64,000 bases of DNA from the sequence record PZ386955.1; one strand, given 5' to 3'. Of the stretch, positions 4,766-25,339 are shown in pieces (the first letter of the stretch is position 1; each line of letters opens with the position of its first letter). The position numbers and the translations under genes were made by a program. Origin of the DNA: a phage. The notes under the pieces were generated by a model that worked only from the letters and a program-made list of their open reading frames with translations, was not told the DNA's origin and ran no database searches.

Positions 4766-4770
4766 TAAAA

Positions 4771-4797: not shown

Positions 4798-4800
4798 ATC

Positions 4801-5232
4801 TTAATCAGTGAAAATTACACTTACATCTTCTTTAGAAAAGAGTTTATGATCTTCACCTTTTGTCTCAAGAGTTTCATACAGGTTAAGAAGTTCTGAAACA
4901 TCTTTCTCTACCAGTTTCTTCAATGTTGCAATTTTCTGTTTGCGACTCTTAATACGTTCAGCTACAACCTTACGTTGGTATCCAGCAGTACGATAACCTG
5001 AGAAAGTTACACCAGTGAGACTTGCAGTTACAGGATCGTAATGACGTTCAATCTGAAATTTATTAAAAGGTACAGCGTCATCACGAATAATCTTCCCACC
5101 ATTACTTACTTGACGAAGACCAGTAACTTGTTCTAGTCGTGCCATAGAAATCTTTGGAGACAGACCAGAGTCCAGGTTCATACCATTGTTAATCAGTGCT
5201 TTCAGGGTGATTTTGCTGTTCAGTGTACTCAT
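4801..5232 (-). CDS. hypothetical protein
   Basis: 143-aa ORF; GGAGGA SD upstream of ATG at 5232; 3' overlap with methyltransferase gene. Confidence 0.5.
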   Translation of the reverse strand: MSTLNSKITLKALINNGMNLDSGLSPKISMARLEQVTGLRQVSNGGKIIRDDAVPFNKFQIERHYDPVTASLTGVTFSGYRTAGYQRKVVAERIKSRKQKIATLKKLVEKDVSELLNLYETLETKGEDHKLFSKEDVSVIFTD

Positions 5233-5920
5233 TTAGTCGTTCCTCCGCTTGCTTAAAAATATTTACATCGGCTTCACAGCCTAAGTATTCTCTACCTGTT
5301 AAAAGTGCCGCAACTTGTGTTGTTGCACTTCCAGAGAAGAAGTCTAAGACTACATCTCCTTCGTTGGTGTGTATATTAATAAGGTCACAAAACAAAGTCA
5401 AGTGTTTTTGTGTTGGATGAAAACGATCTGCTCCTTGATAGATAGGATACTCAAACACACCCTTATGGTAGGAAGCATTGAAGGTTGGCTTAGAACCTTT
5501 AACACAAACAATAGCCATTTCTTTAGCGTTACTAAGGTAGTTAACACCACTGTTGATGGGTACAGGGTTTGTTTTAATCCATTCAATAGTACGGAACATA
5601 CGAAAACCAAGCGGTTCAAGGATTTCACGTAGCTCCTGGATCTTCCACATATCATACCAAACTATGCAAGTACCACCTTTTCTAAGCACCCTGTAGGCTT
5701 CTTTGAATACTTCTTTAAAGTAAGGAATATCTACAACATCCCAATCACCAAAGTTGTAAGATACACGGAATCTATCCGTATCTTTTCCAGTAGGCTCTCC
5801 AGACTGAAAATTTGTGTCACGAGAAATAGCATATGGTGGGTCAGTAAGAATCAAATCTACACTATTGCTTTCGAGGGTTTGCAGGTAGTTTAATGCAGTG
5901 TTGTTTACAAATTCGCTCAT
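5189..5920 (-). CDS. DNA N6-adenine (amino) methyltransferase, beta-class
   Basis: N-terminal DPPY motif (LILTDPPYAI) preceding FxGSGxT-type AdoMet motif (LDFFSGSATT); GAAGGAG SD. Confidence 0.85.
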   Translation of the reverse strand: MSEFVNNTALNYLQTLESNSVDLILTDPPYAISRDTNFQSGEPTGKDTDRFRVSYNFGDWDVVDIPYFKEVFKEAYRVLRKGGTCIVWYDMWKIQELREILEPLGFRMFRTIEWIKTNPVPINSGVNYLSNAKEMAIVCVKGSKPTFNASYHKGVFEYPIYQGADRFHPTQKHLTLFCDLINIHTNEGDVVLDFFSGSATTQVAALLTGREYLGCEADVNIFKQAEERLNEYTEQQNHPESTD

Positions 5921-5936
5921 TATATCTCCTTCAAAG

Positions 5937-5962
5937 AAAAGGAGCCGTTAGGCTCCTTATAT
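5937..5962 (-). terminator. rho-independent terminator
   Basis: Hairpin AAGGAGCC(TAAC)GGCTCCTT followed by TTTTCTTT on minus strand. Confidence 0.65.
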
Positions 5963-5980
5963 TCACACAATATTTAACTA

Positions 5981-6928
5981 TTAGAAACAGTGCAGGAAGT
6001 TTCGACCATACTGCAAACCAATAGGAGCAAATGGGATATCATCATCGAAATCTTGAACAACAGGTTCTGGTTCTTTCGGTGCTGGCTCTTTCTTCTCTAC
6101 TTTTTTAGTTTCTTTCTTAACTTCTTGTACTGGGGTAGACATTCCACGGATAGCAGCAGCTACTTTATCAGACAAAGCAAGAACTTCACGAGCAGCTTCA
6201 ATAATCTCTTCTGCCGTTACAGTTTTACCTGTATGATCACGACAAGCGTTAAGAATTGCGTGTCCAACTGAAGCACCAAGATCATAGTCAGTCACATCAA
6301 CGCCACGATCTTTAGCAATTTCAGCTTTCAGAGTAACAGTTGCAGATTGTACCACACCAGCCAAGTCGAAAGCATCACCTTTCACACCAGCACGTAGAAG
6401 CTCCAGAGCGCCGTTTACAGCGTGTCCTGTTTCAATCCCTACGGTATCACGTTTTTTGTAGTTAGGCTTGCTACCTTCGTTATTAGATGGCTTATTTCCA
6501 CCTTTTGAAGAAGATTGCGCTTGCTGAACACCTTCTGTTGAAAGAACAGTGATTTTACCTTTAGAGGAGTTGTAGTATGTTTTGCCATTCCATTCGGAAG
6601 GTTTAACATCCATAGTTAGTTCTACACCTTTTTCGATAGTAACCCACTTGTCACCATCTTTAACTTGCAGGTTTTCATGTTCTGGATGCAGTTTAACTTC
6701 ACCTAGGCTAACCCAAACACCTTTATCATCAGCACCAGCACCTTTCTCTTTAATAAGCAGAGATGCTTTGTGAGTTGATTCAATTTTCTTATCTGGCTGA
6801 CCTGCAACCTTAATATAAGAGACTTTCATTTCATCAAACTTATCCAGTTTGACATATTCAACGATACCTTCAGCCCAGAATGCTTCTTTTTTAGTACGAC
6901 GGTCGATTTCAGAATTAATTACTGGCAT
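5981..6928 (-). CDS. putative ssDNA-binding / replication accessory protein with SSB-like acidic DDDIPF motif
   Basis: 315 aa; Lys/Glu-rich linker then DFDDDIPF near C-terminus (SSB-tail hallmark, but 15 aa from the end). Confidence 0.35.
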   Translation of the reverse strand: MPVINSEIDRRTKKEAFWAEGIVEYVKLDKFDEMKVSYIKVAGQPDKKIESTHKASLLIKEKGAGADDKGVWVSLGEVKLHPEHENLQVKDGDKWVTIEKGVELTMDVKPSEWNGKTYYNSSKGKITVLSTEGVQQAQSSSKGGNKPSNNEGSKPNYKKRDTVGIETGHAVNGALELLRAGVKGDAFDLAGVVQSATVTLKAEIAKDRGVDVTDYDLGASVGHAILNACRDHTGKTVTAEEIIEAAREVLALSDKVAAAIRGMSTPVQEVKKETKKVEKKEPAPKEPEPVVQDFDDDIPFAPIGLQYGRNFLHCF

Positions 6929-8117: not shown

Positions 8118-10697
8118 CTAGTGACAACTGGCCCATGAGTTACCAACATCGTAACCAGCAGTGAGAGGTACATTAAGATTGTAATACTCACCAGCTTTAT
8201 TAACAGCAATAGATGCTAATTCTCCAGCACGACTGTAGGCTGTAAACCAACCACCTTTCGGAGATTCATGTACGTTAGCCCAAATCTTGCCAGTACGTTT
8301 CTCTTCCTCTTCTTTCCAGGCATTAACTTTATCCAAACATTCTTTATCAATTTTCTTTTGTTCTTCTGGATCATCAACTTGAGTCCAACCTAAAGATTCT
8401 TTAGAGAACCATTTAAAATGCACCAGATCACGAGTTACTTCAAGCTGTGCTTCATCGTGGTATGCAATCATTTGTTGAACGAATGACTTATTTTTCCAGT
8501 CATCAACAAAAAAGTCAACAGCTAATCCTTCTTCTTCGATAAGATCGTCGTAGATAACCATTGCTCTTTTTGCACAAATAACACCACCACTCTGGAACAG
8601 AGAGTTAAGTATTGCGTGTGCAGATCGTGTAGGTACTTTTCTACCATCAATACCGAGAATGTATTTCTTACCTGTTTTAACCCAAAAATCATGCAGACGT
8701 TCTTTAAGAAGCGCAAGAGGTTTTGCAGCTTCCCAGAAAGCATCGTATACAAGCTGTCCTGTATACATATCACTACCAATAGTTTTTGCTACTTTTGCAG
8801 CTTGAGCACCATAAGTAATACCATACTTAACAGATTTAGCAGGGCTTCGTTCAAACTTACGACCAATAGTATCAGAAATACGTCGAGCCATCATTGTATG
8901 AACATCATTAGGTTTTTCCAACAATAGAGCATTACAATATTCGTGTGGTTCCTGCTCGTACCGCCAACAGTAGTGTGATTCTATTTTTGCCTCAAGAGAA
9001 TCAAAGTCATAACCAATTTGGAAGTATTTTGGAACTTCTACACCAAATAAGTTACGCATTTCATACCCGTACAAAGATGTTACACGTGGGATGTTTGCTA
9101 CTAACCTATGTTTCATACGAGACGTAGCTGCATCACACGTTGCAGCAGGAGTTGGTATACGACCATCAGCCCTTACTGCCGCCAGATACCCTTTATCATA
9201 ATCCTCTTCATCTTCTTCCCAATCAGCACCACCACCTAGAATAGAGTTTCTACGATGTTTATACGTAAGATACTGCACAATCTGCGTAGCATAAGGAAAC
9301 TTTTCACCTAGTGCTTCCAAGTTAGGACAAATATCCTTCTCTTGCCCTTTTGTAAAGGAAGGGTTAGTAAGCACTTTAACACCACGACCTTTAGCTTTAG
9401 CAATACGATCTCTTAGTTTCCATTCCAAAGTTTCTGGTGTGCACTCCAGATGATCACATCTATCCTGGCAGAAGTTAGATGCTAATGTTTGATCAACATA
9501 GTCACGAATAGCTTTCTCCATTTGTGCTTCATCTTTCTTAATCTTAGTGCCAGATTTAAGAGTGATATCTTTATCTTTATATTCAGATGGACTCCAACCT
9601 AAACCAACTAACCAATTTTTAATATGTGTAGTGTCATCTAAAGTAGCAGGTACTGTAGGATCACAAATAGGTTCTTCTGCTGGAATAGGTAGTTTAAACT
9701 CTTTACCTAATGCAAATAACCACCAACCATCTTCTTTTTGTACAAGTTCACCAGAATGTTTCTCTGCAAACTTTATCATGTTACTTGAAGGTTCACCATT
9801 CTTTTTAAACTGTAGTTTAGGTGGAATGAATGATTTCAAATAACCTTTAGTAGCAGGTTTAGGAGGTAGCACAGGTTCTGCCTCTAAACGACATGCTTCC
9901 ATTCGAGCATCCAGATCACGAATATTATCTTCTGCTTGTTTCATATTGAAAGCAAAGCCACGGTGCTCTTGACGTGTAATAATATCAGCTACACGTTGTT
10001 CTAAGTTAAATGGTTCAGACCACTTATTATAATCACCCCACTCTTCCATCAAATAACGGAACACTGCGGTGTTAGCTTTGTTATCGTAAATACAGTAATA
10101 CAGCATATCTGCTGCAAATGTTTTAAATCTTTCAGTTTCAGGAATGTTTTTTCTAAAATCAATTTTAACATCCCCTCCAGCTTTCTTAGATAACTCTGCC
10201 AGACTATGACCACCGAAGCGATCAGGGTTTAGTGTCTTACTTAAGATCATAGTATCACAAATTTCAATGTTACTATTACCCCAAGTATTGTACTTAATAC
10301 TGTAGTTGAGTTTAAAAAATAATTTAATTGCCAGTAAGTCGAAGTTAATGATGTTGTGTCCAACTACTTTGGTAATTTTATAGTTTGAATTACCTTTAAA
10401 TTTACCTGTTCCATTTACAAAATCAGGAAAATCTTTAAGAGGGAAATGGGTATATTCTAAATGCTCATATTCCTCCAGTCGGTATTCATACTTTCCGTCA
10501 GTCTCAATATACGGACGACCATCGAAAAGATATTTATCACCATCATGGAAAGCAATAATCTCTCCAGTATCATGACTTTCGCACACAATACAGTGCATTG
10601 CAAAACTATCTTTTAAACGATATGGACTTGCCAAGTAATCTACACTTTCGTCATTAAGCAAGTTGTTACTTTCAATGTCGAAAGTAAAAGCTCCCAT
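8118..10697 (-). CDS. DNA polymerase, family A, with 3'-5' exonuclease domain
   Basis: 859 aa; Exo I FDIES; motif A YDFDSLEAKI; motif B RSPAKSVKYGITYG; motif C YHDE. Confidence 0.9.
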   Translation of the reverse strand: MGAFTFDIESNNLLNDESVDYLASPYRLKDSFAMHCIVCESHDTGEIIAFHDGDKYLFDGRPYIETDGKYEYRLEEYEHLEYTHFPLKDFPDFVNGTGKFKGNSNYKITKVVGHNIINFDLLAIKLFFKLNYSIKYNTWGNSNIEICDTMILSKTLNPDRFGGHSLAELSKKAGGDVKIDFRKNIPETERFKTFAADMLYYCIYDNKANTAVFRYLMEEWGDYNKWSEPFNLEQRVADIITRQEHRGFAFNMKQAEDNIRDLDARMEACRLEAEPVLPPKPATKGYLKSFIPPKLQFKKNGEPSSNMIKFAEKHSGELVQKEDGWWLFALGKEFKLPIPAEEPICDPTVPATLDDTTHIKNWLVGLGWSPSEYKDKDITLKSGTKIKKDEAQMEKAIRDYVDQTLASNFCQDRCDHLECTPETLEWKLRDRIAKAKGRGVKVLTNPSFTKGQEKDICPNLEALGEKFPYATQIVQYLTYKHRRNSILGGGADWEEDEEDYDKGYLAAVRADGRIPTPAATCDAATSRMKHRLVANIPRVTSLYGYEMRNLFGVEVPKYFQIGYDFDSLEAKIESHYCWRYEQEPHEYCNALLLEKPNDVHTMMARRISDTIGRKFERSPAKSVKYGITYGAQAAKVAKTIGSDMYTGQLVYDAFWEAAKPLALLKERLHDFWVKTGKKYILGIDGRKVPTRSAHAILNSLFQSGGVICAKRAMVIYDDLIEEEGLAVDFFVDDWKNKSFVQQMIAYHDEAQLEVTRDLVHFKWFSKESLGWTQVDDPEEQKKIDKECLDKVNAWKEEEEKRTGKIWANVHESPKGGWFTAYSRAGELASIAVNKAGEYYNLNVPLTAGYDVGNSWASCH

Positions 10698-11193: not shown

Positions 11194-12966
11194 TTAATAA
11201 GAACCATCAGGAATATTCTCTGGGTTACTTGTGTATTGATCGTAATCGTGAAGTGTAGCTGTTTTAATCTCATAGAAGAAACTACCTGCTGCACCAGTCT
11301 CTGAGAACTCACGGTTCTTTAGAATGTAGCAATATGTGCGGTTACGTTCCATAGGATCTTCAGCTTGTTTATCACGCTCCAGCGCAATTGTGATACCAGC
11401 ACCTTTAGCAAGGAAGCTACTACCCATTGCATCATCTTCTACAATATGTTCATTACTATTGTTAGAAGACTTTTTAACGTGTGAAATTACAACAATGGTA
11501 ATTGCGTACTCTTTCATAATGCGTTTGAGCCACGTCGCAAGTTCCTCTTGTTGTGACACGTCCATACCAGAAAGCAAATCAGAATAAGGGTCGATAACAA
11601 GAATGGTTACTCCGAAATAAATAATCATTTCCAGAACCTTCTCTTTAATCACATCTACGTTAGCTCCACGATCATCACAAACATAGAAACGTGGTGTTCC
11701 ATCTTCCCGTTCGTAAAAATCACGAATCTTTTCTTCATTATCTTTTAAAATCTTTTCCTTCTCTTCTTTCGTTTTACGGTGAAGAGGGATATGCAAGAAT
11801 GAAGACAGTAAGTTACGAGAATACTTCTTATACGTTGCCTCCAAAGATAAAATACCAAGAGTATGTTCTGGGTGTGCAAGAATAATGTGCTTCGTAATCT
11901 CGTTAACCAACAGTGTTTTACCGATACTTGTTTTTGCAAGTATAACAGTAATTTCTTCTTCTACCAAGCCTCCACCTAACATATTAGAAGCAACACGCAT
12001 GAATGGAGGAAGGGTGATCATTTTAGCTTCCAGGCATTCCAAGGCTGCTTCATACAGTACGTTAGAAGCATAAACACCAGCAGGTGTGTACAGTTTAGCT
12101 TTGAAAAAGCGATCAAGAAAGTGATCAATTTTTCCTTCTACTAGTGCCTGGTTAGGATCTTTAACATCTGTTAGTTCCATCACGTAAACTTTATTACGTG
12201 GTAAGATTTTAACACATTTCTCAACTGCTGCACGTCCAGCTTCATCATTATCCATACATAGAACAATCTTTTTAAATTGATCTAAGAATTTATAACGATG
12301 TTGAAGCTGCTTATGCAGAGATGTTTCGCCACAAGTGCCAGATACTACAGCAGGAACAGGATATTTACCACCCTTGTTATAATCTTTTAGCATCTGTGTT
12401 GCAGCCAGCATATCGTGTTCACCACCAACGATTAGAATAGTACCGCTGTGGTTACGATATTTAAACTCCCCAAAAAGATCACAATCCTTTCCTGTTTCAC
12501 CGATAGGATGTGAGAAATCTTTTGGATCGATACGTTGTTTATACCCAGCAATATTGTAATCTTTAGTTGTAGGGTATAGTGTTGAAATTACTTCGCCAGT
12601 AGCTTCATCGTACATATAACGTACACCGAAAGGCTTAGAGATATCTTCACGAATACCGCGATAACCTTTTGGATTAGTTCCAGTGCTGGCTTTCAGTTTA
12701 TCATGTACTTCTGGATTAAACTCACTACCCAAGATATCCTCCTCTTCAATTTCTTCGCCGTGTGCATTTAACCATTTTTGATCAGGGATAGTAAAGCCAC
12801 AAGAAAAACAATGTGCGCCTCGATGGTCTTCATCGGCATCTAAGCCATATACCATCAAATTGTTTTGTGATCGATCACGCCCTCCTTTCATACAACGAGG
12901 ACACCCAGTATGTCCTTCTTGACTTAGATCAATATTATACCCATATTTATTTACAACATAAGACAC
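11194..12966 (-). CDS. DNA primase-helicase (T7 gp4-like: zinc ribbon, primase and DnaB-family helicase)
   Basis: N-terminal CPRC...CFSCG zinc ribbon; Walker A AKTSIGKT in C-terminal helicase half; 590 aa. Confidence 0.8.
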   Translation of the reverse strand: MSYVVNKYGYNIDLSQEGHTGCPRCMKGGRDRSQNNLMVYGLDADEDHRGAHCFSCGFTIPDQKWLNAHGEEIEEEDILGSEFNPEVHDKLKASTGTNPKGYRGIREDISKPFGVRYMYDEATGEVISTLYPTTKDYNIAGYKQRIDPKDFSHPIGETGKDCDLFGEFKYRNHSGTILIVGGEHDMLAATQMLKDYNKGGKYPVPAVVSGTCGETSLHKQLQHRYKFLDQFKKIVLCMDNDEAGRAAVEKCVKILPRNKVYVMELTDVKDPNQALVEGKIDHFLDRFFKAKLYTPAGVYASNVLYEAALECLEAKMITLPPFMRVASNMLGGGLVEEEITVILAKTSIGKTLLVNEITKHIILAHPEHTLGILSLEATYKKYSRNLLSSFLHIPLHRKTKEEKEKILKDNEEKIRDFYEREDGTPRFYVCDDRGANVDVIKEKVLEMIIYFGVTILVIDPYSDLLSGMDVSQQEELATWLKRIMKEYAITIVVISHVKKSSNNSNEHIVEDDAMGSSFLAKGAGITIALERDKQAEDPMERNRTYCYILKNREFSETGAAGSFFYEIKTATLHDYDQYTSNPENIPDGSY

Positions 12967-12978
12967 ATGATTCTCCTA

Positions 12979-13248
12979 CTAAAATGATTCGTTTGTCTCC
13001 ATAATATATTGCATTTCCAAATCTTCCATATGTTTCTTAAATTGGTAAACAATTTCCGATGGGGAAATATCTATATCAAAAAGTTCTTTTGTACCAGAAT
13101 AAAATCTAATACCATCAACAATAAGACCACCATAATAATCCCAATCACTTTCTCGTGAGAAAGGGTTAGGTTCTTCATAATAGTAATCTACTTCAACAAT
13201 AATAGGTTCTTTATTATCTTGTTTATACTCAAAATCAAAAGTGTTCAT
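12979..13248 (-). CDS. hypothetical protein
   Basis: 89-aa acidic ORF. Confidence 0.45.
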   Translation of the reverse strand: MNTFDFEYKQDNKEPIIVEVDYYYEEPNPFSRESDWDYYGGLIVDGIRFYSGTKELFDIDISPSEIVYQFKKHMEDLEMQYIMETNESF

Positions 13249-14192
13249 TATAAATCCTCGATAAGCAGTCTGCGGGTTTCATTTAAATCATCAATATTGT
13301 AGTTATCTCTTACATACTTAGCAAGAGCCAATCCTTTCTCAATACAAACATCAGGAGATTCGATTAAGTATTCTACAATATCTTTCCACTCTTTAACTGA
13401 ATCAGCAAAGAAGATTAGATCTTTAAACTCTTCAGTATAATAGTTCTCTCGTGGTGAACAAACGAGTGGCAAACCTTTAGCACCAGCTTCAAGAATTTTT
13501 AAATTACTTTTGGCATTATTAAAATGATTATTTACTAATGGAGCTATGGAGATTTGATGACCATCGTATGCTTCCATATAACACTCATAAGGACGAATAC
13601 CCTCATAAACACAATCTGGTTGAATATCTTCTTTAATTTGCAACCATTGAGCACTACTTAACTCTTCGTGATCTCTACGAAATCCACATAAAGTTAAATC
13701 TTTACCAAAACTAGGAAGAATAGCTAAATCATGTTTATGTGTTTCACTTCCCGCCCAAACCAGTGGACTTTTAGAATAACGATCTTTAGTAAGAACAAAC
13801 TGTCCTTCATCAAAAGGTAGTCCGTTAGGCACAATATGTACATTATCATTGTATTGGCTTAATTCAACCTTTAATGCTGGAGTTGTTGTAGTTACAAGAT
13901 CGCTTCTTTCAAGGAACCATTTTAGATCATCTCGGATTTGATTTTCAAATAATCCTTCAAGCATATGTCCTTCAGGAATAATTAAAGAATCATCCAGATC
14001 CATTACCAATTTAAACCCAAGTTGTTTAAGAGCCAGGAAACCTGGCTTTCCACGGGTTGGTACTCCATTGAACACAAAAATATTATGCTTAGGATTAATG
14101 GTCAGTTTGCGTTTATATGGCAAAATGATTCTATGAAAATCACATACACTATACTTTTCATTTTCGCGTGTGTCAAGAATAATGTTAGGCAT
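13248..14192 (-). CDS. putative glycosyltransferase (GT-B-like), paralogue 1
   Basis: C-terminal KILEAGAKGLPLVCSP resembles GT-B nucleotide-sugar motif; paralogous to 14204-15178. Confidence 0.4.
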   Translation of the reverse strand: MPNIILDTRENEKYSVCDFHRIILPYKRKLTINPKHNIFVFNGVPTRGKPGFLALKQLGFKLVMDLDDSLIIPEGHMLEGLFENQIRDDLKWFLERSDLVTTTTPALKVELSQYNDNVHIVPNGLPFDEGQFVLTKDRYSKSPLVWAGSETHKHDLAILPSFGKDLTLCGFRRDHEELSSAQWLQIKEDIQPDCVYEGIRPYECYMEAYDGHQISIAPLVNNHFNNAKSNLKILEAGAKGLPLVCSPRENYYTEEFKDLIFFADSVKEWKDIVEYLIESPDVCIEKGLALAKYVRDNYNIDDLNETRRLLIEDL

Positions 14193-14203
14193 ATCGCTCC
14201 TTA

Positions 14204-15178
14204 TTAAAGACTTTCAATAACTTGACGACGCAGTTCATTGGCATCTGCAAGATTATAATTAAGACGAACGTGTTCTGCAAGCATCATACCACGATCTTCT
14301 GTGTATCTAGGGTTCCTCATTAGCTTGACAACTTCATAATGCCAAGATGCTTTAGAGTCTGCATAAATAACAGCCTTTGCATCTACTGGATTGAAGTACG
14401 GCAGCACAGGAGAACAGATAATAGGAAGACCCTTTGCACCTGCTTCCAAAATCTTCAAATTGCTTTTACAGTTGTTGAAGTCATTATCTACCAGAGGAGC
14501 AATTGCAATACTGTGACCGTCATACACAGACATATACTCACCTAGATTTTTAATAGCTGGTTTATACTGTGCATTTGGAATTTTACGTTTTATTTTAACC
14601 CACTCCGCAGTAGTTAGATACTGACTATTATTTCCAACAGGTGCAGAAGGATACACTTCGTACCCTGCAATTGTCAATAGTGTATCATCAAATGTATTAG
14701 CTACAAGAGATAAATCAGGTTCATGGCTTGCTCCTCCAGCCCAAACAATAGGTGTGTCAGAATAACGGTCTTTTGTTAAAGTAAATTGACCTTCATCGTA
14801 AGGCAGTGCGTTTCTAATAACGACAACATTACGATTTAAATGACGAATTTTGTAAGCTAGGTATTCTGTTGTTACAGTAACCACATCTGCTAACTTAATC
14901 ATCTCTACAATAGTCTTTGAGTGATTAGTAAATACGCCAGCCATATAATGTTCAGGATTAAGCGAATAAAAATCATCTAAATCAACAATAATCTTAACAC
15001 CTTGTGCCTTCAGGCGTTTAACTTCGTCTGATCCACGAGAATACACTCTATTAAAAACTAAAACGTCTTTCTTAGGTTTAAACGTATTTCCAGCAAATGG
15101 CATTACAATACGATGGTAATCACAACCACTGCCTAACTTATTATCACACTTAAGTACAGGAGTATTAGGATTTACCAT
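14204..15178 (-). CDS. putative glycosyltransferase (GT-B-like), paralogue 2
   Basis: Shares VWAG...DGH(S/Q)I(A/S)IAPLV.N.FNN.KSNLKILEAGAKGLP blocks with 13248-14192; start at 15178 with AGGAGG SD. Confidence 0.4.
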   Translation of the reverse strand: MVNPNTPVLKCDNKLGSGCDYHRIVMPFAGNTFKPKKDVLVFNRVYSRGSDEVKRLKAQGVKIIVDLDDFYSLNPEHYMAGVFTNHSKTIVEMIKLADVVTVTTEYLAYKIRHLNRNVVVIRNALPYDEGQFTLTKDRYSDTPIVWAGGASHEPDLSLVANTFDDTLLTIAGYEVYPSAPVGNNSQYLTTAEWVKIKRKIPNAQYKPAIKNLGEYMSVYDGHSIAIAPLVDNDFNNCKSNLKILEAGAKGLPIICSPVLPYFNPVDAKAVIYADSKASWHYEVVKLMRNPRYTEDRGMMLAEHVRLNYNLADANELRRQVIESL

Positions 15179-15851
15179 ATTTTTGAGCCTCCTCATAAGA
15201 GATAAAAGTTTTACCATTGCGAAGATCCTCCAGTGATTGTTTATATTGTTCCCAGTTTACACCAATCCCCTGTTCTTTCTCTTCTTTTGACAGATTCGCA
15301 AAAGGTAAAGGATTGTCTCCAAACACATCGTCAGGATGGATAAACGCCATAATTCGAATAGGACATGGTACGCCGTGAATACCTCGGTTCAAACCTGCCA
15401 GTGGAACGCGCTGAATCCACTCTGCATCTTCATATCCATAACCGTGGGTGTATGAGCGGAAATAGCCAGCTTTCTCAATAACTGCACGGGAATACATACC
15501 AAACTGGCACATGCCTAGCTCCCAAATAACCACTTCTCCTTCAATACCTTTTACTTTATCTTTAAAGTATTCAGGCATACCAAAGAAATCCCAACCATTT
15601 TCCTTCGCCTGTTTTACAAAATATGTTTCCCAACCTGGAACAACAGGATAACAATCATCATCAAAAATAAACCAGTAGTCATACCCTTCATCATAAAACT
15701 TTTTCATCAGTTCATTACGGGCATATGCAACACCTTTTCGTTCACGATCATACTGTACAACAAAAGTAGCATTAGGATCAGTTACAAGATAATCTTTAAG
15801 AGGACGCTTACCTACAGTAATAACACCAACACCAATTTTTGTATTTTCCAA
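15165..15851 (-). CDS. putative glycosyltransferase (GT-A-like, DxD motif)
   Basis: YDYWFIFDDDCYP block typical of DxD nucleotide-sugar transferases. Confidence 0.45.
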   Translation of the reverse strand: MENTKIGVGVITVGKRPLKDYLVTDPNATFVVQYDRERKGVAYARNELMKKFYDEGYDYWFIFDDDCYPVVPGWETYFVKQAKENGWDFFGMPEYFKDKVKGIEGEVVIWELGMCQFGMYSRAVIEKAGYFRSYTHGYGYEDAEWIQRVPLAGLNRGIHGVPCPIRIMAFIHPDDVFGDNPLPFANLSKEEKEQGIGVNWEQYKQSLEDLRNGKTFISYEEAQKYGKS

Positions 15852-15860
15852 AATAACTCC

Positions 15861-16424
15861 TTAAATAATTTTATTCATGTCTTGACAATGTAAAAGGTGT
15901 GAAACAGCTTTTCTAGGATCATCATTACCTAAACGGTATGTGTGAAATAAATATAACCCACGTAGTAAACCTAGCCTTTTATTGTTAGCGTGCAATGCTT
16001 TAGAGAAAATTATATCAAACTGTATTGATCTTTCCTCAAAAGGAATTTCATTCCACAGACTCTTACGAAAGAGAAGAAAGAATCCTGCTAAGATAGCATC
16101 TGTAGGTACTTCCTCTATTGAGTTTCCCCATTCTAGATGTGCTCTTTTTGCAATCTCAATGTGGTGTAATATATTCGGATCTTCACTTCTTTCATTATTA
16201 AATAATTGATATGTTGATCCCAATCTGTTACAAGATGCACCAAGAACATCAAAATCAGGATTTGAACGGACAATTGATTCCAGCCAAGCAGGTTGTTCTG
16301 GAAGAAGAAACATTGTATCAATGTCTCTTAGGCAAATCCAACTATCTTCTGGTAAGACACTTATTGTGTCATTGATACCTTTTCCAATATCTCCAGAAAG
16401 ATAGGGAGTTATGTGAAATATCAT
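15861..16424 (-). CDS. hypothetical protein (possible nucleotide-sugar transferase)
   Basis: 187 aa, ICLRDIDTMF acidic motif; adjacent to glycosyltransferase genes. Confidence 0.35.
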   Translation of the reverse strand: MIFHITPYLSGDIGKGINDTISVLPEDSWICLRDIDTMFLLPEQPAWLESIVRSNPDFDVLGASCNRLGSTYQLFNNERSEDPNILHHIEIAKRAHLEWGNSIEEVPTDAILAGFFLLFRKSLWNEIPFEERSIQFDIIFSKALHANNKRLGLLRGLYLFHTYRLGNDDPRKAVSHLLHCQDMNKII

Positions 16425-16481
16425 ACTCCCTCCGTATTATTACTTTAGCATTTTTAGACTAAAAAGTCCAAATGGTTTTAC

Positions 16482-16676
16482 CTATTGATTACGTTTTGCG
16501 AGTTCCATTTGGATAGCTAAACTGTGATCTCGTGCTTCCATATACTCTTTATATGTTTCATTAAGATGATCACGACAAACATCACGCAGTTTAATCAGTT
16601 TATCTGTAGGGATACCACTAAGATCATCCCAAGATTTTACAACTTCACCAGTATCATTGATCCCAATGGTTTTCAT
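16482..16676 (-). CDS. hypothetical protein
   Basis: 64-aa ORF. Confidence 0.4.
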   Translation of the reverse strand: MKTIGINDTGEVVKSWDDLSGIPTDKLIKLRDVCRDHLNETYKEYMEARDHSLAIQMELAKRNQ

Positions 16677-16884
16677 CTACAACCTCCTTAATTGCTACAG
16701 CACAGTTTTTGCAGATACACTGCCCTTTACCTTTAGAAATCTGGATGTAAGGTTCATTTTCATTTTCGCCCTTACGTGAGTCATATATTACAGAATTGAA
16801 GCACACAACGCAAATATTTTTTAAGATTGTATACTTATCAACTTTCTTTTTTGTTTTAAAGTTAACTTCAATAACATCAGCCAT
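16654..16884 (-). CDS. Cys-rich zinc-ribbon protein
   Basis: CVVCF...CICKNC motifs; start set at ATG 16884 overlapping upstream stop. Confidence 0.4.
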   Translation of the reverse strand: MADVIEVNFKTKKKVDKYTILKNICVVCFNSVIYDSRKGENENEPYIQISKGKGQCICKNCAVAIKEVVDENHWDQ

Positions 16885-17172: not shown

Positions 17173-17682
17173 TTAGCGATAGAATTGATGTTCTTTGTAG
17201 CGGTACACTAGAACCATATCTTTTTCCCAGTGTGCTCTTATTGTAGATTTTTTAAAGTATAATGCTCCTTTTGTAATATCTAATGCAATTCGTAATTCTG
17301 GAAAATGCGTATCGAGATAAAGTAGACGTTCTGCTATAGCCTTAGCTTCCTTCCACTTATCACGTTCCATAACGTTGAATGTCTTTGTGTAAGAGAATTG
17401 TCCTTTTTGAAACAAAACTTCTTTTATAGTATCAGGGAAATATGAATCTCTAGCCCTATTCAATACTACATTACCAACAGCAGACATACCGCGCTTTCCT
17501 TGATTACGACTTTCTGCATAGATTGCACAAGCTAATAGATTTTCTTTACTATCACGCTTTGTACACTTGTGAACTACTTTAGCAGTTTTTACGTTTGCAG
17601 CTTCGGCTTGCGCCACAACAGGTGTAAATGTAAAAGCAGTTAAGGATAGTAACGCAATTGCGACAAAGGTTTTTATTGACAA
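17173..17682 (-). CDS. secreted cell-wall hydrolase, SleB/Hydrolase_2 family (candidate lysis enzyme)
   Basis: N-terminal signal peptide (LLSLTAFTFTPVVAQA); AIYAESRNQG...VGNVVLNRARDSYFPDTIKEVLFQKGQFS matches SleB-type block. Confidence 0.65.
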   Translation of the reverse strand: MSIKTFVAIALLSLTAFTFTPVVAQAEAANVKTAKVVHKCTKRDSKENLLACAIYAESRNQGKRGMSAVGNVVLNRARDSYFPDTIKEVLFQKGQFSYTKTFNVMERDKWKEAKAIAERLLYLDTHFPELRIALDITKGALYFKKSTIRAHWEKDMVLVYRYKEHQFYR

Positions 17683-18400: not shown

Positions 18401-18425
18401 ATATGCGCCCCGAAGGGCGCTATGA
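18401..18425 (-). terminator. rho-independent terminator
   Basis: Hairpin GCGCCCCGAAGGGCGC immediately downstream of TerD-family gene. Confidence 0.6.
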
Positions 18426-18429
18426 TTTA

Positions 18430-19026
18430 TTACTCGAACCAATCGTCGCCAGCGCCAAACGCTTTAACTACATCGTAAATGTCAAGCCCAGCTTTACCCA
18501 CACCATACGCTTTCAGTTTCCATTCGCTATCTTCTCGCACCAGGGAGGCAACGTGGCAAATGGTGTTACCTGCAAGTTCTGGAGCCAAGAAGTCAAAGTC
18601 CAGCAGTTCAACATTACGTTCATCATCGAAGATTTTAAGGAAACCTTCGGTAGCGTGACCAAGGCGTTTCTTACCCGTTTCGTCATCAATAGTAATTACG
18701 AATGCAATTTCCTGTGCTTCAGCAGAGATATTATCCAGTGTAACATCAATCTGCTCCATCTGTCCTACACCATCACGAACATCTTCACCTGCAAAAGTAG
18801 AACGTTCAGGATCAAATTTCTGCGCGTAGCACACCAGGTGACGAGGAGACAACAGTTCCGGCAGACCAGATGCATTGTGTCGGCAAATCAGAGCACTAAC
18901 ATCCAGATCCAGTTTTTCGTTAGATTTCCAAGAGAATTCCAGACGAATGCGTTTCAGTGCTGGTGCAATCTTTTTCAGAGAAACTTTTTCGCTAGAACCT
19001 TTTTTCAGGGAAATTTTCTGAGTCAT
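18430..19026 (-). CDS. TerD-family protein
   Basis: Blocks ISLKKGSSEKVSLKK, LDLDVSALIC, AGEDVRDGVGQMEQIDVTL, IAFVITIDD, SEWKLKAYGVGKAGL align with E. coli TerD blocks. Confidence 0.85.
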   Translation of the reverse strand: MTQKISLKKGSSEKVSLKKIAPALKRIRLEFSWKSNEKLDLDVSALICRHNASGLPELLSPRHLVCYAQKFDPERSTFAGEDVRDGVGQMEQIDVTLDNISAEAQEIAFVITIDDETGKKRLGHATEGFLKIFDDERNVELLDFDFLAPELAGNTICHVASLVREDSEWKLKAYGVGKAGLDIYDVVKAFGAGDDWFE

Positions 19027-19098
19027 AATTTATTATCTCCTTTGTTGTTAATTTACGTTGTCTATTTTACTAATCTTTTCTACAAAGTCAAGCGTTTT

Positions 19099-19893
19099 TT
19101 ACGCTTTTGCTCCAAATTTTTTAACCCACTCACCAAACTCTTCGGATAGCAGTTTATCGTAAAGTTCTTCGTCAGACAAGGACAAATCTGCAATACCGAT
19201 AAAATCAACATTATCGTATTCTTTTGCCAAGTCTTTCAGGAATTTAAAGTTTGCATTACCTACACCAACCATAAACCAGTAAACAGGCGTATTGCGGTGT
19301 TTGTTCAGTAAGCTACGTACTGCTGAAGTATCCATGTTCTCCCCGTCAGTTTGGAAGAAAATCATTGCAGGAGTACGATCAACTTGTGCATCAGTATCTA
19401 CAACCTGTTCTACAACAGTACGTGTTACTTCTACAAGTTCTTTTTTACCAGTTAGTTTAGCAAGGAAACCTTTAGCCGGAACTTCTTCATACTCAACGAC
19501 TTCGCGTGTAATATTTTTCATAGGTACACTACCGAAGTATGTATCATAGATCTCTTGCATTACTGGAGCATAAGCAGTACCACCGTTGATGCAAACATTA
19601 GACATGCAAGAGCCGACATAATCATCATACACATCAGCCGTTGCAGGAGGCAGTTCAAAAGAAGAACTATTGAAAGCCCACATGTCAATCTGTGCATTAT
19701 CATCAAACTTCATACCAAACGGCAGCAGTTTACCTACAAAATCGCTAACAGTGCCATCACGATACAGCTCACACATACTACCCGAAATATCTAAGGCGCT
19801 ACCTACACGAAGAACAACATCGTTAATCTTTTTCTTACGCAGGGATACAGTAAGAGTTTCTTGACGTTTTTTAAGACTGATTTTATTGGACAT
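19099..19893 (-). CDS. von Willebrand factor A (vWA) domain protein, TerY-like
   Basis: MIDAS-type DISGSM motif. Confidence 0.5.
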   Translation of the reverse strand: MSNKISLKKRQETLTVSLRKKKINDVVLRVGSALDISGSMCELYRDGTVSDFVGKLLPFGMKFDDNAQIDMWAFNSSSFELPPATADVYDDYVGSCMSNVCINGGTAYAPVMQEIYDTYFGSVPMKNITREVVEYEEVPAKGFLAKLTGKKELVEVTRTVVEQVVDTDAQVDRTPAMIFFQTDGENMDTSAVRSLLNKHRNTPVYWFMVGVGNANFKFLKDLAKEYDNVDFIGIADLSLSDEELYDKLLSEEFGEWVKKFGAKA

Positions 19894-19894
19894 A

Positions 19895-20164
19895 TTATTT
19901 CTCCTTTCTGACTGTAATGTTAGTAACTTCTAAATCCACTTCTACCACTTCTGTATCATATAAAATACAGTTAAGTTGACCTCTTTGTGAACCGTTAAGA
20001 CACATTGCTTGGTTTGTATTAACCTTAATAAACACTAAGTTTCTGAACGTATCTAAACCAGCATCTTGATAGGCAACATAATATACGAATGTATCACCTG
20101 TGTCAAGTTCTCCAAAACATTTAGGTTCATCTGATTTGTCGTCTTTGATATTAAATTTAAGCAC
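19895..20164 (-). CDS. hypothetical protein
   Basis: 89-aa ORF. Confidence 0.45.
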   Translation of the reverse strand: MLKFNIKDDKSDEPKCFGELDTGDTFVYYVAYQDAGLDTFRNLVFIKVNTNQAMCLNGSQRGQLNCILYDTEVVEVDLEVTNITVRKEK

Positions 20165-20720
20165 TGTCTTCTCCTTTACCTGCTCTCAAGCCTAAATAGA
20201 AAGCCTCTCTAGTGATTTTTTGCAACTCGTTTAAAGAGATAGTTACAACTAAATCATCTTCAATTTCTAGCTTTGAGTCTTCTTCTGTCTCAATGCAAGT
20301 ATTATGCACTTTGTGGTAAGGATTGTCAACACGTTTAAATTTATTATTTTCAGTGCTGAAGAAGCAATCTGGATCTTCTTCTCCATCACCCCAACCCTGG
20401 TTAGGGTCTTCTTCAGATCTTTCTGTTGGGATCTCACCTGTAAAGTGTTCTTCTAATACCAGAGCAATCCCATCTCCAAGATCGGAAGAGAACATCAAAT
20501 TACAAACTTCTTCCCAAGGCATAGACCACTTGAATCTTTTACGATTGCCATGTTTATCTTCTTCGTTAGAGAAAACACTACCATAGCTATCATAATTCCC
20601 ATACATCTCTTCGACAACCTTACCACCTTTCAAAAGAAATAGGTAGCAAGGAGAGCCATCGAAAGAGGTAGAAAGAGCAGCATTACCAGACTCTTTGCAC
20701 AAGAAACTAAAACACCCCAT
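20157..20720 (-). CDS. hypothetical acidic protein
   Basis: 187-aa ORF. Confidence 0.45.
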   Translation of the reverse strand: MGCFSFLCKESGNAALSTSFDGSPCYLFLLKGGKVVEEMYGNYDSYGSVFSNEEDKHGNRKRFKWSMPWEEVCNLMFSSDLGDGIALVLEEHFTGEIPTERSEEDPNQGWGDGEEDPDCFFSTENNKFKRVDNPYHKVHNTCIETEEDSKLEIEDDLVVTISLNELQKITREAFYLGLRAGKGEDSA

Positions 20721-20920
20721 TATACACCAGCCTTAAGATCAATTAAAGCCAAAGTTGTTTCAGAGTGTGTTTGCTCGTCTACAGGTGCAGTCATATGATA
20801 ATACAAAAAATCTTCGGCATCATACCAATCTGATTCTTGACCTTGTTTCCAACCATCAATGAAAGCATCTTCCATAATGGTTTGCAATTCTTCACGAGTT
20901 AAGTGAATATCTTTACTCAT
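20720..20920 (-). CDS. hypothetical protein
   Basis: 66-aa ORF. Confidence 0.4.
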   Translation of the reverse strand: MSKDIHLTREELQTIMEDAFIDGWKQGQESDWYDAEDFLYYHMTAPVDEQTHSETTLALIDLKAGV

Positions 20921-21126
20921 TACACATTCTCCTCTTTTACCAATTCCATCGTTGAACTATCAAAACCATCTTTAGAAGAATAGGTATAGACAGAACGTAG
21001 TTCTCGCAGGACAGTGAATACATTGGGATCATCTAACCAAGCATCCTGGAGGAGAACATAACGATCTTCATTGTCGTACTGGACAGCAATCATAGAACCA
21101 GACAGTTTGTAAATTTTAATATTCAT
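20920..21126 (-). CDS. hypothetical protein
   Basis: Start set at ATG 21126 with AAGGAG SD. Confidence 0.4.
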   Translation of the reverse strand: MNIKIYKLSGSMIAVQYDNEDRYVLLQDAWLDDPNVFTVLRELRSVYTYSSKDGFDSSTMELVKEENV

Positions 21127-21139
21127 AATATATTTCTCC

Positions 21140-22243
21140 TTAAAGTAGACCACGTTTAACAGTTTGAATCATACCATCTTCAAGAGATTGCACTTCTTGA
21201 ATGTAATCAATACGCGCAGCACGGGCTTCAGTGTTGATTCGGTTAGTTTCTTCCAACATTTTAACTAAGTTTTCTTGATCGCGACGTAATGTTTCAATAT
21301 CCAATACTTGACGATTAGCAAGTTGTGTAGCTTCAATTTGGTTTTGTGCAGCCAGATCACTACCCATTGCAATAGCAGCATTAAATTCATTCAGCACATT
21401 GTTCTGTGTATCGGCTGCTTTCTTCTGGCGTAGACTTTCAATATACATAGAAAAGTTTGCAGAGTAAGCAGGGATAACATTATTCACAATATTACGGGCT
21501 GATCGCATCAAACTTGCAGATACTTTCTGCATACTTTGTACCCGTGGCCCCATCTGAACACACAGTAAACGCAAGGCTTTCAGGTCTGCAATACGAATTT
21601 CAAGCAGATCCATAGTATCACGAGTACGTTGACGCTCTTCTACTTCATTTTCAGGTAGTGTATTAAGGCGAACTTCTTCTTTTTCATAAGTAGCTGTTAG
21701 AAGCTCTATATCCCTGTTTAAGCTAAGAGCATATTTTGCAATAGCCTCTTCTAAACGTTGCAGATATCGTAAAGAATCTTCTTCTTTTTTCAAGTCTGTT
21801 TGTAGTGTCTTTACCAAACCTTCAATACGGTTATTGATGGTGTCAAATTCTCCAAACAAATCTTCTTTCATACCTAATACTTTCTTAACTAGTTTACCTA
21901 AGCCTTTAGATTGTTTAATAGAGTTAGGATCAAGTTGCTTTGCTTGCTTAATAAGTGCAGTTAAACGTTCACTCATTTCATCCCCCTGAGATGAACGCTG
22001 GTGTTTAAGCACTTCAGCATTAAGGTTACGAAGAGTAAGTCCTGCATCAGCACCAACTTGTTCAATCTCTTCACGAGACATTGGAGGCAGCATTTGTACA
22101 GGTCGTGCAACAGCAGGGGCATATACAGGGCTTGCATCCATAGCACTTGGAGCAAACAAAGACTTACTTTTTTCTGTTGTTGCCGTGAATACACTCATTT
22201 CAGACGGTTTGCTTTTTACGGCACTGATAAAAGGACTGGACAT
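21140..22243 (-). CDS. coiled-coil protein, possibly TelA-like (toxic anion resistance family)
   Basis: 367 aa, helical/coiled-coil composition, size and Ter-gene context; no diagnostic motif confirmed. Confidence 0.35.
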   Translation of the reverse strand: MSSPFISAVKSKPSEMSVFTATTEKSKSLFAPSAMDASPVYAPAVARPVQMLPPMSREEIEQVGADAGLTLRNLNAEVLKHQRSSQGDEMSERLTALIKQAKQLDPNSIKQSKGLGKLVKKVLGMKEDLFGEFDTINNRIEGLVKTLQTDLKKEEDSLRYLQRLEEAIAKYALSLNRDIELLTATYEKEEVRLNTLPENEVEERQRTRDTMDLLEIRIADLKALRLLCVQMGPRVQSMQKVSASLMRSARNIVNNVIPAYSANFSMYIESLRQKKAADTQNNVLNEFNAAIAMGSDLAAQNQIEATQLANRQVLDIETLRRDQENLVKMLEETNRINTEARAARIDYIQEVQSLEDGMIQTVKRGLL

Positions 22244-22311
22244 TCAATTTCCTCCATATTCTTTAGTAGATGGTGATACCTCTGTACCACCATCATAACA
22301 CAAATTAAGTA

Positions 22312-23163
22312 TTAAACAAACATATCTAAATAATTTGTAGTAATAAATGCTCCATCTGCTTCCAGATTAACATAACCAGTAGCATTAGTGGTTAAGAAAT
22401 CCAGATCGAAGGACTCTTTAACACCCCGTACCTCAACACGAGAGATATCGAATACAGGTAGTGTAACAGCCTCTTCGTGCAATACCGTACCTTTGTAGGT
22501 TGCCTTAATGATAAACTTGATATTACCCGTTCCAGCATCATACAAAACACTTTCAAACCCTTTGAGAGTATACTTATCACCAGAAGTGAAGTGCAAAGTT
22601 GCTTTGTTTACAGTACGTTTCTTACGAGGAGTTCCTTTCACACGTTTATGATCACTACGTTTTTTGTATTTAGGAATGAATACAAACGATACATTGTGAA
22701 GAAAGGTATCAACATCAAGGATTTTAATATCCTCTGTTGCAGCAAATTTTGAAGTTGTTGCATCAAAATGCTTTTCCCTGCGATCATACATAAAGATATC
22801 AAACCGATCTTCTAAATCAAACAAATTATGTATTTTAATTTCAGAATGCTTGCGCATTGCAGCAACCTTGAACTCTTCAAAACGTGGGTGTTCTACAAGT
22901 TCTTCAAGTTTTACACCAAAGACAGTATATTGCTTCGGAGTTTTTTCTGGTGTTGGCATTACAGAAGCATAATCCCCGATTGCGCTCTTAAAGCAAAATT
23001 GTTCTTGACCTGTATTTTTACCAACGAATTTACAGTATTCGTCATCGTGCATACTTTCCTGGGTAGTACCAACAAACTCAAAACCATCTTTATTCTTCTC
23101 AAGAATTTCTTGATTAAAGATCCAACCTTCCAGGCGATACACTTTACCAACTTCTAGTTTCAT
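22312..23163 (-). CDS. hypothetical protein
   Basis: 283-aa ORF. Confidence 0.5.
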   Translation of the reverse strand: MKLEVGKVYRLEGWIFNQEILEKNKDGFEFVGTTQESMHDDEYCKFVGKNTGQEQFCFKSAIGDYASVMPTPEKTPKQYTVFGVKLEELVEHPRFEEFKVAAMRKHSEIKIHNLFDLEDRFDIFMYDRREKHFDATTSKFAATEDIKILDVDTFLHNVSFVFIPKYKKRSDHKRVKGTPRKKRTVNKATLHFTSGDKYTLKGFESVLYDAGTGNIKFIIKATYKGTVLHEEAVTLPVFDISRVEVRGVKESFDLDFLTTNATGYVNLEADGAFITTNYLDMFV

Positions 23164-23198
23164 CTGTTTCTCCTTCTTATTTAATCTGTATTAAATTA

Positions 23199-23789
23199 TT
23201 AACGACGACGTGAGCTACTAAAACTACGTTTCGACGAAGAATAACTTTTCGAAGACTTACTATAAGAGCTAATAGGGCTTGAGTAAGACTTACGAGCAGA
23301 GTAATTACTATTCACTTTTGTTGTTGATGGGCGTGAATACGTTTGTACACTTTGCTGCTTAATTGTGTTTTGTTTAGTGGTTGTATATGTATTCCCTTGT
23401 TTATCATAAAAACTATGCTTTTGTGTTGTATATGCTTTACTGTTAGTTATAGGAGCAGCGTTGTTATTAATAATTGTTGTGCTGCTACCACCATCCCTAT
23501 AACCACCACCGCCACTATTACCACTCAACATATGACCAAGAAGCATACCTGTAGCGAACTCACCTACGCCAGAAGAACCACTGCCGCCTCCTTGAACAAC
23601 AACTGTTGAAGGTTGTGCAGGTGCTGCTTGAACAACTTGAGGTGCAGGTTGATTTACATATTGCTCATCTACCATCTGATTTGGTGTTTGTTGGTAACGT
23701 TGATTTTGTACATTTTCAGAATCATCACAACCTACCAGCAATACACTACCTAAAACAACTGCAACAATAAAAGATTTAATGTTTTTCAT
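23199..23789 (-). CDS. putative lipoprotein with Gly-rich and Ser/Tyr/Lys-rich regions
   Basis: Signal peptide ending LLVGC (lipobox-like); start at ATG 23789 with SD. Confidence 0.5.
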   Translation of the reverse strand: MKNIKSFIVAVVLGSVLLVGCDDSENVQNQRYQQTPNQMVDEQYVNQPAPQVVQAAPAQPSTVVVQGGGSGSSGVGEFATGMLLGHMLSGNSGGGGYRDGGSSTTIINNNAAPITNSKAYTTQKHSFYDKQGNTYTTTKQNTIKQQSVQTYSRPSTTKVNSNYSARKSYSSPISSYSKSSKSYSSSKRSFSSSRRR

Positions 23790-23995
23790 TTGTAACCCTC
23801 TCATTTAAAGTCTCAACACAATTTTTAAAATCCCTAGAGAAACAATACATCTGTTCTCCGTTCCTGTTGATAGTAATTGTATGGTTATCAATATATGTTG
23901 TCAAGATAAAAATCAAACAAAACAACCCTAGAGCAAAACAAATATTTTCAAACAGAATCCAAAGAACACGTAAAACCACCATCAGATCACCTCAA

Positions 23996-24018
23996 CAAAG
24001 CCCCCGAAGGGGCTTAAT
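23996..24018 (-). terminator. rho-independent terminator
   Basis: Hairpin AAGCCCCTTCGGGGGCTT followed by TTTGTT on minus strand, downstream of TerC-family gene. Confidence 0.6.
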
Positions 24019-24021
24019 GAA

Positions 24022-25325: not shown

Positions 25326-25339
25326 ATAAAGATCCTCTC

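Follow-up and report, generated by a model that had tools for sequence, protein, structure and literature searches.

A four-gene glycosyltransferase cassette in the replication module of a phage, very probably acting on an acceptor other than DNA

The subject of this work is a 64,000-nucleotide stretch of DNA from a phi92-like coliphage (record PZ386955.1; hereafter the window), in which the interval 13248-16424 on the minus strand is made up of exactly four consecutive open reading frames (ORFs) in a program-made list, denoted as P1 to P4. The four genes form a glycosyltransferase cassette whose acceptor is very probably something other than DNA. We further propose, with rather less than even confidence, that the cassette is fed with rhamnose and assembles an oligosaccharide stepwise on this non-DNA acceptor, perhaps a virion protein. 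In the proposed mechanism, P1-P4 would be a soluble cytoplasmic set of two GT-A and two GT4-like GT-B enzymes, supplied by the phage's own deoxythymidine diphosphate (dTDP)-L-rhamnose pathway (rmlBACD), and the donors would be dTDP-rhamnose and uridine diphosphate (UDP)-sugars of the host. With one transfer per enzyme, the product would be a short glycan with about four sugars at most, for which DNA would not be the acceptor and a phage (virion) protein is our best guess. Rhamnose as the donor, the stepwise order of transfer and a protein as the acceptor are the parts of this mechanism that we infer.

P1 (13248-14192, minus strand) encodes 314 amino acids (aa), P3 (15165-15851, minus) 228 aa and P4 (15861-16424, minus) 187 aa. 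P2 was listed as a minus-strand ORF at 14204-15217 with 337 aa, which is also its length in the GenBank annotation of relatives, whereas its homologues have 320-324 aa. Since a GGAGG Shine-Dalgarno sequence precedes the ATG at 15178 by 9 nt and the homologues are of the shorter length, the true start of P2 is probably this ATG, 13 codons downstream of the start annotated in relatives, which gives a gene at 14204-15178 with 324 aa. The start codon of P3 is a TTG, preceded by an AAGGAG Shine-Dalgarno sequence. In the phage ESCO5 (Phapecoctavirus), orthologues of P1-P4 lie in the same order with 66-76% amino-acid identity, and in the comparison with Phapecoctavirus orthologues the synonymous sites are saturated and the ratio of nonsynonymous to synonymous substitution rates (dN/dS) is about 0.1 or less. 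Considering this conserved order and the low dN/dS, P1-P4 are real genes and not chance ORFs, and they are under strong purifying selection. A hydrophobic segment is absent in all four proteins (maximum 19-residue Kyte-Doolittle mean of at most 1.2), and the enzymes are soluble and cytoplasmic.

At 95-99% nucleotide identity, 56 phage records match the region 12900-16700, and for 53 of these the match extends over 80% or more of the region. Among the 56 are phi92, Paula, vB_Eco_PATM and the BASEL phages JohannJBalmer, PaulScherrer and EmilieFrey. The matching records that were inspected belong to the genus Justusliebigvirus of the subfamily Stephanstirmvirinae, and within this genus (phi92, Paula, BASEL Bas60-62) the cassette has 98-99% nucleotide identity. 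The annotation of the four genes is not new, since phi92, the BASEL phages and RefSeq already name them as glycosyltransferases. Genes gp163-166 of phi92 are the same genes in the same order with the same neighbours and nothing substantive differs, while bas62_0046-0049 of JohannJBalmer (bas62_0046 being the orthologue of P1) and gp211-214 of ESCO5 are orthologues of the cassette. The labels in relatives are either glycosyltransferase (phi92 genes 163-166) or two times 'putative disaccharide synthase' and two times 'putative glycosyltransferase'. Within the library of papers searched, no reported function was found for these genes and no virion glycosylation shown in coliphages.

P1 and P2 are paralogues with 41% identity (E 9e-84). 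Both contain the motif KILEAGAKGLP, and its glutamate (E235) is invariant in 27 family members. The conserved glutamate of this LEAGAxGxP motif is the counterpart of the first glutamate of the EX7E motif, and the second glutamate of EX7E is absent, the residue eight positions further on being another amino acid in both P1 and P2. Both proteins fall into PHROG 7162 (P1, E 4e-145; P2, E 3e-149). In Pfam, P1 scored 26.8 bits with Glyco_trans_1_2 against a cut-off of 25, and P2 reached 14.3 and 18.1 bits with Glyco_trans_1-type families, both under the cut-offs. An AlphaFold model of P1 was obtained with a predicted local distance difference test score (pLDDT) of 93.8, and its top Foldseek matches in the PDB were BshA, MshA, GlgM, GtfC, PglA and TreT (E about 1e-9). 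Almost all of the top 50 PDB matches are described as sugar-transferring GT-B enzymes, chiefly of GT4 type, with E values of about 1e-9 to 1e-6. As modelled, P1 is a two-domain GT-B protein of GT4-like fold; for P2, a GT4-like GT-B fold is predicted from its 41% identity to the modelled P1. The known GT4 enzymes (BshA, MshA, GlgM, PglA, GtfC/Gtf3, TreT) share with P1 the fold and the first EX7E glutamate at 12-16% identity; P1 and P2 differ from them in being shorter (314-324 aa versus 330-440 aa) and in the absence of the second EX7E glutamate. The 'disaccharide synthase' label of the BASEL records was not reproduced, as no lipid-A disaccharide synthase was among the 50 best structural matches. 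Klebsiella phage phi1_175008 has a single GT-B, with 66% identity to P2 and only 38% to P1. Because single-copy relatives are closer to P2, the sequences point to P2 as the ancestral-type copy and to P1 as the diverged duplicate.

P3 and P4 are GT-A-fold enzymes, and the two are unrelated to each other in sequence comparison. D64-D65-D66 of P3 and D34-x-D36 of P4 are invariant among their relatives. P3 belongs to PHROG 2456 (E 3e-79), P4 has no Pfam match, and P1-P4 all lie in PHROGs 'glycosyltransferase' families with E values between 1e-79 and 1e-149. No matches to NCBIfam were found for P1-P4, and the family profiles of P1-P3 returned only marginal GT4 matches or none among PDB sequences. 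The extended family of P3 comprises 1493 cluster representatives at an E value of 1e-3 or better; among 83 sampled relatives, 43 match Glycos_transf_2 (best E 2e-17), 37 match Glyco_transf_7C and 12 match TAGT weakly (best E 1.6e-5). P3 itself is a GT2/GT7-like DxD glycosyltransferase, and P4 is a minimal one. STIV A197, a minimal viral GT-A, and the giant-virus glycan machineries with rhamnose pathways of their own resemble the cassette at the level of fold only, and their hosts and virion types are unrelated. An earlier note, made from the letters of the window, had described a cluster of four glycosyltransferase genes at 13248-16424 with a tandem paralogue pair sharing a GT-B-like C-terminal motif, a DxD-motif GT-A-like ORF and a further acidic-motif ORF. 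The four minus-strand ORFs, their PHROGs families, folds and motifs agree with that description in each part, and the profile and structural annotation that the note had suggested as a check (PHROGs, and AlphaFold with Foldseek for P1) supports the glycosyltransferase assignment.

From the same cluster, the note inferred possible hypermodification of DNA as an anti-restriction measure, in which the enzymes would glycosylate a modified base in the phage DNA and thereby evade restriction. The genes do lie in the replication module by primase and polymerase, and Olsen et al. speculated on rhamnosylated hydroxymethyl bases (PMC7552041). P3 and 13 of its 14 close relatives also gave weak matches to TAGT (PF20691), with which P3 shares the N-terminal nucleotide-binding/DxD region, and P3 matched weakly the PHROG of the T2/T6 second glucosyltransferase. 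However, the TAGT match of P3 scores 23.3 bits against a gathering threshold of 27.5 and covers only positions 37-96, that is 60 of the 205 profile positions, and the wider family is GT2/GT7-like; we therefore rejected TAGT membership. With E values up to 1 allowed, Pfam still gave no match of P1 or P2 to the alpha- and beta-glucosyltransferase families of T4, and the 50 best Foldseek matches in the PDB and in BFVD include none that is described as a DNA glucosyltransferase.

The inference of DNA hypermodification is contradicted by the published phenotypes of phages that carry the same cluster at 98.5-99% nucleotide identity. These phenotypes, which speak for unmodified DNA, come from the literature; the folds, motifs, conservation and gene neighbourhoods are our own results. 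Maffei et al. found the phi92-like BASEL phages 'exceptionally susceptible' to restriction-modification despite a 'putative dTDP glycosylation machinery' (PMC8594841). Picton et al. reported a drop in plating of seven orders of magnitude for phiPau and phiPATM on a host with BREX; both phages fall in the BREX-sensitive class, outside the class restricted by BrxU, an enzyme that cuts DNA with 5-methylcytosine, 5-hydroxymethylcytosine and glucosyl-5-hydroxymethylcytosine (PMC8565348). We equated phiPau and phiPATM by name with the records LR865361 and OX090893, and the BME3 paper ties Paula to these studies. The modified-DNA phages of Durham that a later chemical survey covers are all Straboviridae (PMC13390438). 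Druantia III and ARMADA II restrict Bas61 and Bas62, whereas hypermodified T-even phages escape both systems (PMC13463889). As such, the restriction sensitivity that the note had named as evidence against its own inference is essentially what is described in vivo for close relatives.

The gene content points in the same direction. As the note had remarked, no hydroxymethylase is found among the larger ORFs of the window. The note had also suggested a search for base-modifying enzymes in the rest of the genome, and the annotation of the complete genome of JohannJBalmer, a 98.5% identical phage, shows neither a hydroxymethylase nor a TET enzyme; no ThyA-type hydroxymethylase and no TET/JBP enzyme is present there. 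The 'thymidylate synthase' of relatives was considered as a hidden hydroxymethylase and rejected, since the sole thymidylate-synthase-like gene of JohannJBalmer is of ThyX type and not ThyA-like in Pfam. The T-even DNA glucosyltransferases (T4 alpha- and beta-glucosyltransferase, T2/T6 TAGT-type) and the TET-associated systems are likewise phage-encoded and placed among genes of replication and nucleotide metabolism. Unlike them, P1-P4 show no membership of their families and are accompanied by neither a hydroxymethylase nor a TET enzyme, and the behaviour of the phages is that expected of unmodified DNA. Taken all together, DNA hypermodification is already largely refuted in vivo by the phenotypes of close relatives, and we consider it very improbable for this phage. 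The fallback of the note, glycosylation of phage or host structures, stands as the better reading.

Olsen et al. described a complete dTDP-rhamnose pathway in phi92-like and phAPEC8-like phages (PMC7552041). The rmlB, A, C and D genes of JohannJBalmer are found at 114-117 kb, some 70 kb away from its cassette and in a part of the genome outside our window, and Pfam strongly confirmed all of RmlA-D. The distribution of RmlC across phage records is almost that of the GT-B, with 55 versus 54 records at 95% identity or more and 77 versus 74 at 60-80%. Klebsiella phage phi1_175008 keeps RmlC alongside P4 and a P2-type GT-B. A whole-genome tblastn search of FBKp34 (MW394390), a divergent Klebsiella phage of the Stephanstirmvirinae, detected none of RmlA-D, P3 and P4; of a GT-B it recovered the C-terminal half alone, and the syntenic rml site between the ribonucleotide reductase beta gene and glutaredoxin is empty. 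These distributions suggest that the cassette is probably coupled in function to the rml pathway of the phage; a tie to nucleotide-sugar supply, most simply that of dTDP-L-rhamnose, is what we infer from them. As separate observations, FBKp34 has none of the phi92-type lateral tail fibres, and it carries a PARP-like protein and an IS200/IS605-type element.

The cassette is conserved in the Stephanstirmvirinae as judged from its sequences, with the order P4-P3-P2-P1 in Justusliebigvirus and Phapecoctavirus. It is reduced in phi1_175008, where only P4 and the P2-type GT-B occur, and in a 135-kb metagenomic phage an epimerase/dehydratase of nucleoside diphosphate (NDP)-sugars lies between P4 and P3, with a GT-B in addition. 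Comparison of these variants suggests that P4 and a P2-type GT-B are the conserved core and that P3 and the duplicate P1 are later additions. In the proposed mechanism, P4 and the P2-type GT-B would accordingly make the core of the glycan, onto which P3 and P1 would later add. A variable composition is as expected for stepwise elaboration of a glycan.

To see the genomic contexts of the wider GT-B family, which has at least 551 loci in IMG/VR, neighbourhoods were counted in the best 80 loci, where neighbour genes were clustered without bias and cluster representatives were then searched with Pfam. A GT2-like GT-A is adjacent in 38 of the 80 loci and a hexapeptide acyltransferase in 10. In 24 of the 80 (23 of the 53 with enough downstream flank), the GT-B is followed on the same strand, at a distance of about 3 kb, by a T4-type large terminase, and in 10 loci the GT-B starts a median of 41 nt after an XkdF-type prohead protease gene. 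Terminase or prohead protease lies within 7 kb on the same strand in 34 of the 80. In a 36-kb phage, a P3-like GT-A (hhalign probability 98%) and a GT-B immediately precede the genes for small terminase, large terminase, portal and capsid, and Streptomyces phage KimJongPhill has an NDP-sugar enzyme, a methyltransferase and a GT-B upstream of terminase. Another phage carries two P4 paralogues between terminase and portal, together with UDP-galactopyranose mutase, a GT2, a deacetylase and two methyltransferases. In a further phage, the GT-B is accompanied by a GT2, a second GT-B-like gene, an epimerase, a radical-SAM enzyme and a DegT aminotransferase beside replication genes. Polysaccharide deacetylase and class-I methyltransferases are among the companion genes across these contexts. 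The acetylated, methylated, amino- and furanose-sugar chemistry of such companions points to a complex glycan rather than to base modification.

The recurrent placement of relatives with head and packaging genes leans to a virion protein as the acceptor, although it is suggestive only. Freeman et al. in 2023 reportedly described virion-glycosylation cassettes of mycobacteriophages. Such cassettes are small sets of soluble glycosyltransferases, sometimes with methyltransferases. As in the actinophage cassettes, remote relatives of P1/P2 and P4 adjoin terminase, portal or prohead-protease genes; unlike the mycobacteriophage cassettes, P1-P4 themselves sit in a replication module, and the likeness drawn here is one of gene content and context. 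We know of no glycosylated virion protein of any coliphage. We rank a virion protein first among the acceptors and glycoconjugates of the host envelope second, and the first of these is a leading candidate held tentatively. As a broader conjecture, which we regard as doubtful in its full extent, a virulent enterobacterial myovirus would make its own dTDP-rhamnose and place a rhamnose-containing oligosaccharide on its virion proteins or another non-DNA macromolecule, and the same GT-B/GT-A cassette, often found in head and packaging modules, would mark a widespread unrecognised virion glycosylation in phages of Gram-negative and environmental bacteria.

Several points weigh against a rhamnose-fed cassette that acts on the virion. 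In this phage, the cassette sits with replication genes and not with structural genes, and no structural protein was found with a feature that tracks the cassette. DNA methylases also occur upstream of terminase in small phages, so that the context there is compatible with a DNA-related role. The genes for a 326-aa and a 623-aa protein that flank a GT-B were considered as capsid and portal, and this identification failed; the 326-aa protein, whose gene lies near a GT-B gene in the prohead-protease context, has no match in the PDB or the phage collection. The joint loss of rml and cassette concerns one divergent lineage, and otherwise the co-distribution could reflect shared ancestry alone. GT4-type enzymes are mostly retaining and use UDP-, guanosine diphosphate (GDP)- or adenosine diphosphate (ADP)-sugars, and because rhamnosyltransferases are a minority among them, the fold does not point to rhamnose as the donor. 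Two observations on gene order stand apart from these points. In a group of 10 uncultured-phage loci, those with the GT-B right behind an XkdF-type prohead protease gene, the GT-B is followed by an Ala/Glu/Pro-rich 209-aa protein and then by the 326-aa protein, and in a single case, a Burkholderia homologue adjoins an inverse-autotransporter adhesin.

Among individual virion proteins, a collagen-like lateral tail fibre was considered as the acceptor by analogy with rhamnosylated BclA and the glycosylated collagen of Mimivirus. This candidate was rejected, since phi1_175008 keeps P4, P2 and rml yet is without that fibre and the Big_2 fibre. The lateral tail-fibre protein of the window (53-1906, plus strand) has several short collagen-like runs of G-D-K/G-E-K triplets and a fibritin-like C-terminal segment.

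The second-ranked acceptor would be reached by remodelling of the host envelope, in which the enzymes would act at the inner membrane face on undecaprenyl-phosphate-linked intermediates or the lipopolysaccharide core, using dTDP-rhamnose. Altered or blocked surface glycans could, for example, stop superinfection or keep progeny off debris, or the lipid carrier could be sequestered. No flippase, polymerase, ligase or Gtr-type membrane protein is encoded nearby, and P1-P4 contain no membrane segment. With no hydrophobic segment and no match to Gtr families in Pfam or PHROGs, P1-P4 do not belong to the Gtr-type seroconversion systems. A surface glycan that already exists would presumably outlast the short lytic cycle, and in other phages, homologues are grouped with genes for packaging and the head rather than with those for host interaction. 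Considering these results, we regard envelope remodelling as unlikely, at a lower level of belief than a virion acceptor.

The placement of the cassette in the replication module, as claimed in the earlier note, was borne out, with a primase-helicase gene (11194-12966) immediately downstream and a DNA polymerase gene (8118-10697) beyond it. Between P1 and the primase-helicase, an ORF at 12979-13248 (minus) encodes a very acidic protein of 89 aa (isoelectric point 4.1), and its start overlaps the stop of P1 by one base. This ORF next to the primase is conserved in the Stephanstirmvirinae and more distantly in the Vequintavirinae. We considered its product as an acceptor or partner of the cassette and rejected it, since homologues occur in the replication region of Vequintavirinae such as PVP-SE1; no glycosyltransferase gene is annotated in the 8-kb stretch examined around the homologue in PVP-SE1-type Vequintavirinae, and the search with P1 listed no Vequintavirinae. 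On the upstream side, small ORFs lie between the cassette and a gene for a SleB-type cell-wall hydrolase (17173-17682, minus; Pfam Hydrolase_2, E 6.5e-20) with a signal-peptide-like sequence at its N-terminus. The note had called this neighbour lysis-type; it is a cell-wall hydrolase indeed, but a different protein from the endolysin that the annotation of relatives places elsewhere. A perfect GC-rich hairpin, GCGCCC-TTCG-GGGCGC, at 18405-18420 is terminator-like on both strands and separates TerD from the transcription unit that holds the glycosyltransferases. Because no terminator-like site was found between the SleB-type hydrolase, the four transferases and the primase, the cassette is likely co-transcribed with the replication genes. 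A scan for sigma-70 promoters was not above chance, with 37 sites versus 31 expected.

Beyond the hairpin, a phage-borne Ter-type module spans 18430-27789 on the minus strand. It comprises the minus-strand genes for TerD (18430-19026), vWA-TerF (19099-19893), TelA (21140-22243), TerC (24022-24999), Macro (25556-26389), a ComF-like PRTase_3 protein (26265-27122) and a HAD hydrolase (27115-27789). Bioinformatic work has linked this gene set to a predicted nucleoside-like metabolite. Its position 2-11 kb upstream of the cassette on the same strand bears on the possibility of another soluble acceptor, which could be a host protein, a small molecule (e.g. a nucleoside-like product of the PRTase/HAD/Macro-Ter module) or RNA such as a queuosine tRNA. 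The solubility of all four enzymes and the many tRNA genes of relatives would suit such an acceptor. In eukaryotes, glycosylated queuosine is made by one GT4-type and one GT2-type enzyme, which also counts for it, and takeover of a host by glycosylation has a parallel in bacterial toxins. However, FBKp34 keeps the Ter/PRTase module and its tRNAs and has lost the cassette and rml, so that these are separable, and homologous cassettes in other phages occur without Ter genes. A set of four transferases with a sugar pathway speaks for an oligosaccharide more than for one regulatory sugar. Another soluble acceptor is less probable than the envelope and a good deal less so than a virion protein.

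The mismatch between restriction sensitivity and a 'glycosylation machinery' has already been noted in print. Eight genes, four transferases and four rml genes, are invested by coliphages that are widely used, broad in host range and candidates for therapy in a glycan that apparently is not for DNA. If the target is the virion, this would bear on the immunogenicity, stability and host range of the phages, and Bas60-62, phi92 and the host E. coli K-12 are tractable.

Outside the cassette, further features of the window were observed. The UvrD/Rep-type helicase ORF at 33962-35737 (minus) encodes 591 aa, while for the JohannJBalmer allele the annotation gives a 924-aa precursor with a 347-aa intein; this phage appears to carry the intein-free allele. 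At 43581-45743 (plus), a 536-aa protein combines an AAA/STAND-like NTPase with a CapR-homology domain and a weak T5orf172 domain, and a NADAR (YbiA-like) protein comes next. JohannJBalmer differs at this locus, where its NADAR/YbiA-like gene is preceded by genes for a 375-aa 'FtsH-like protease' and a hypothetical protein of 390 aa. Genes lie on the minus strand from about 4.8 to 42 kb and on the plus strand on either side, and the sign of the GC skew flips at about 4000-6000 and about 42000, the two switches in the direction of transcription.

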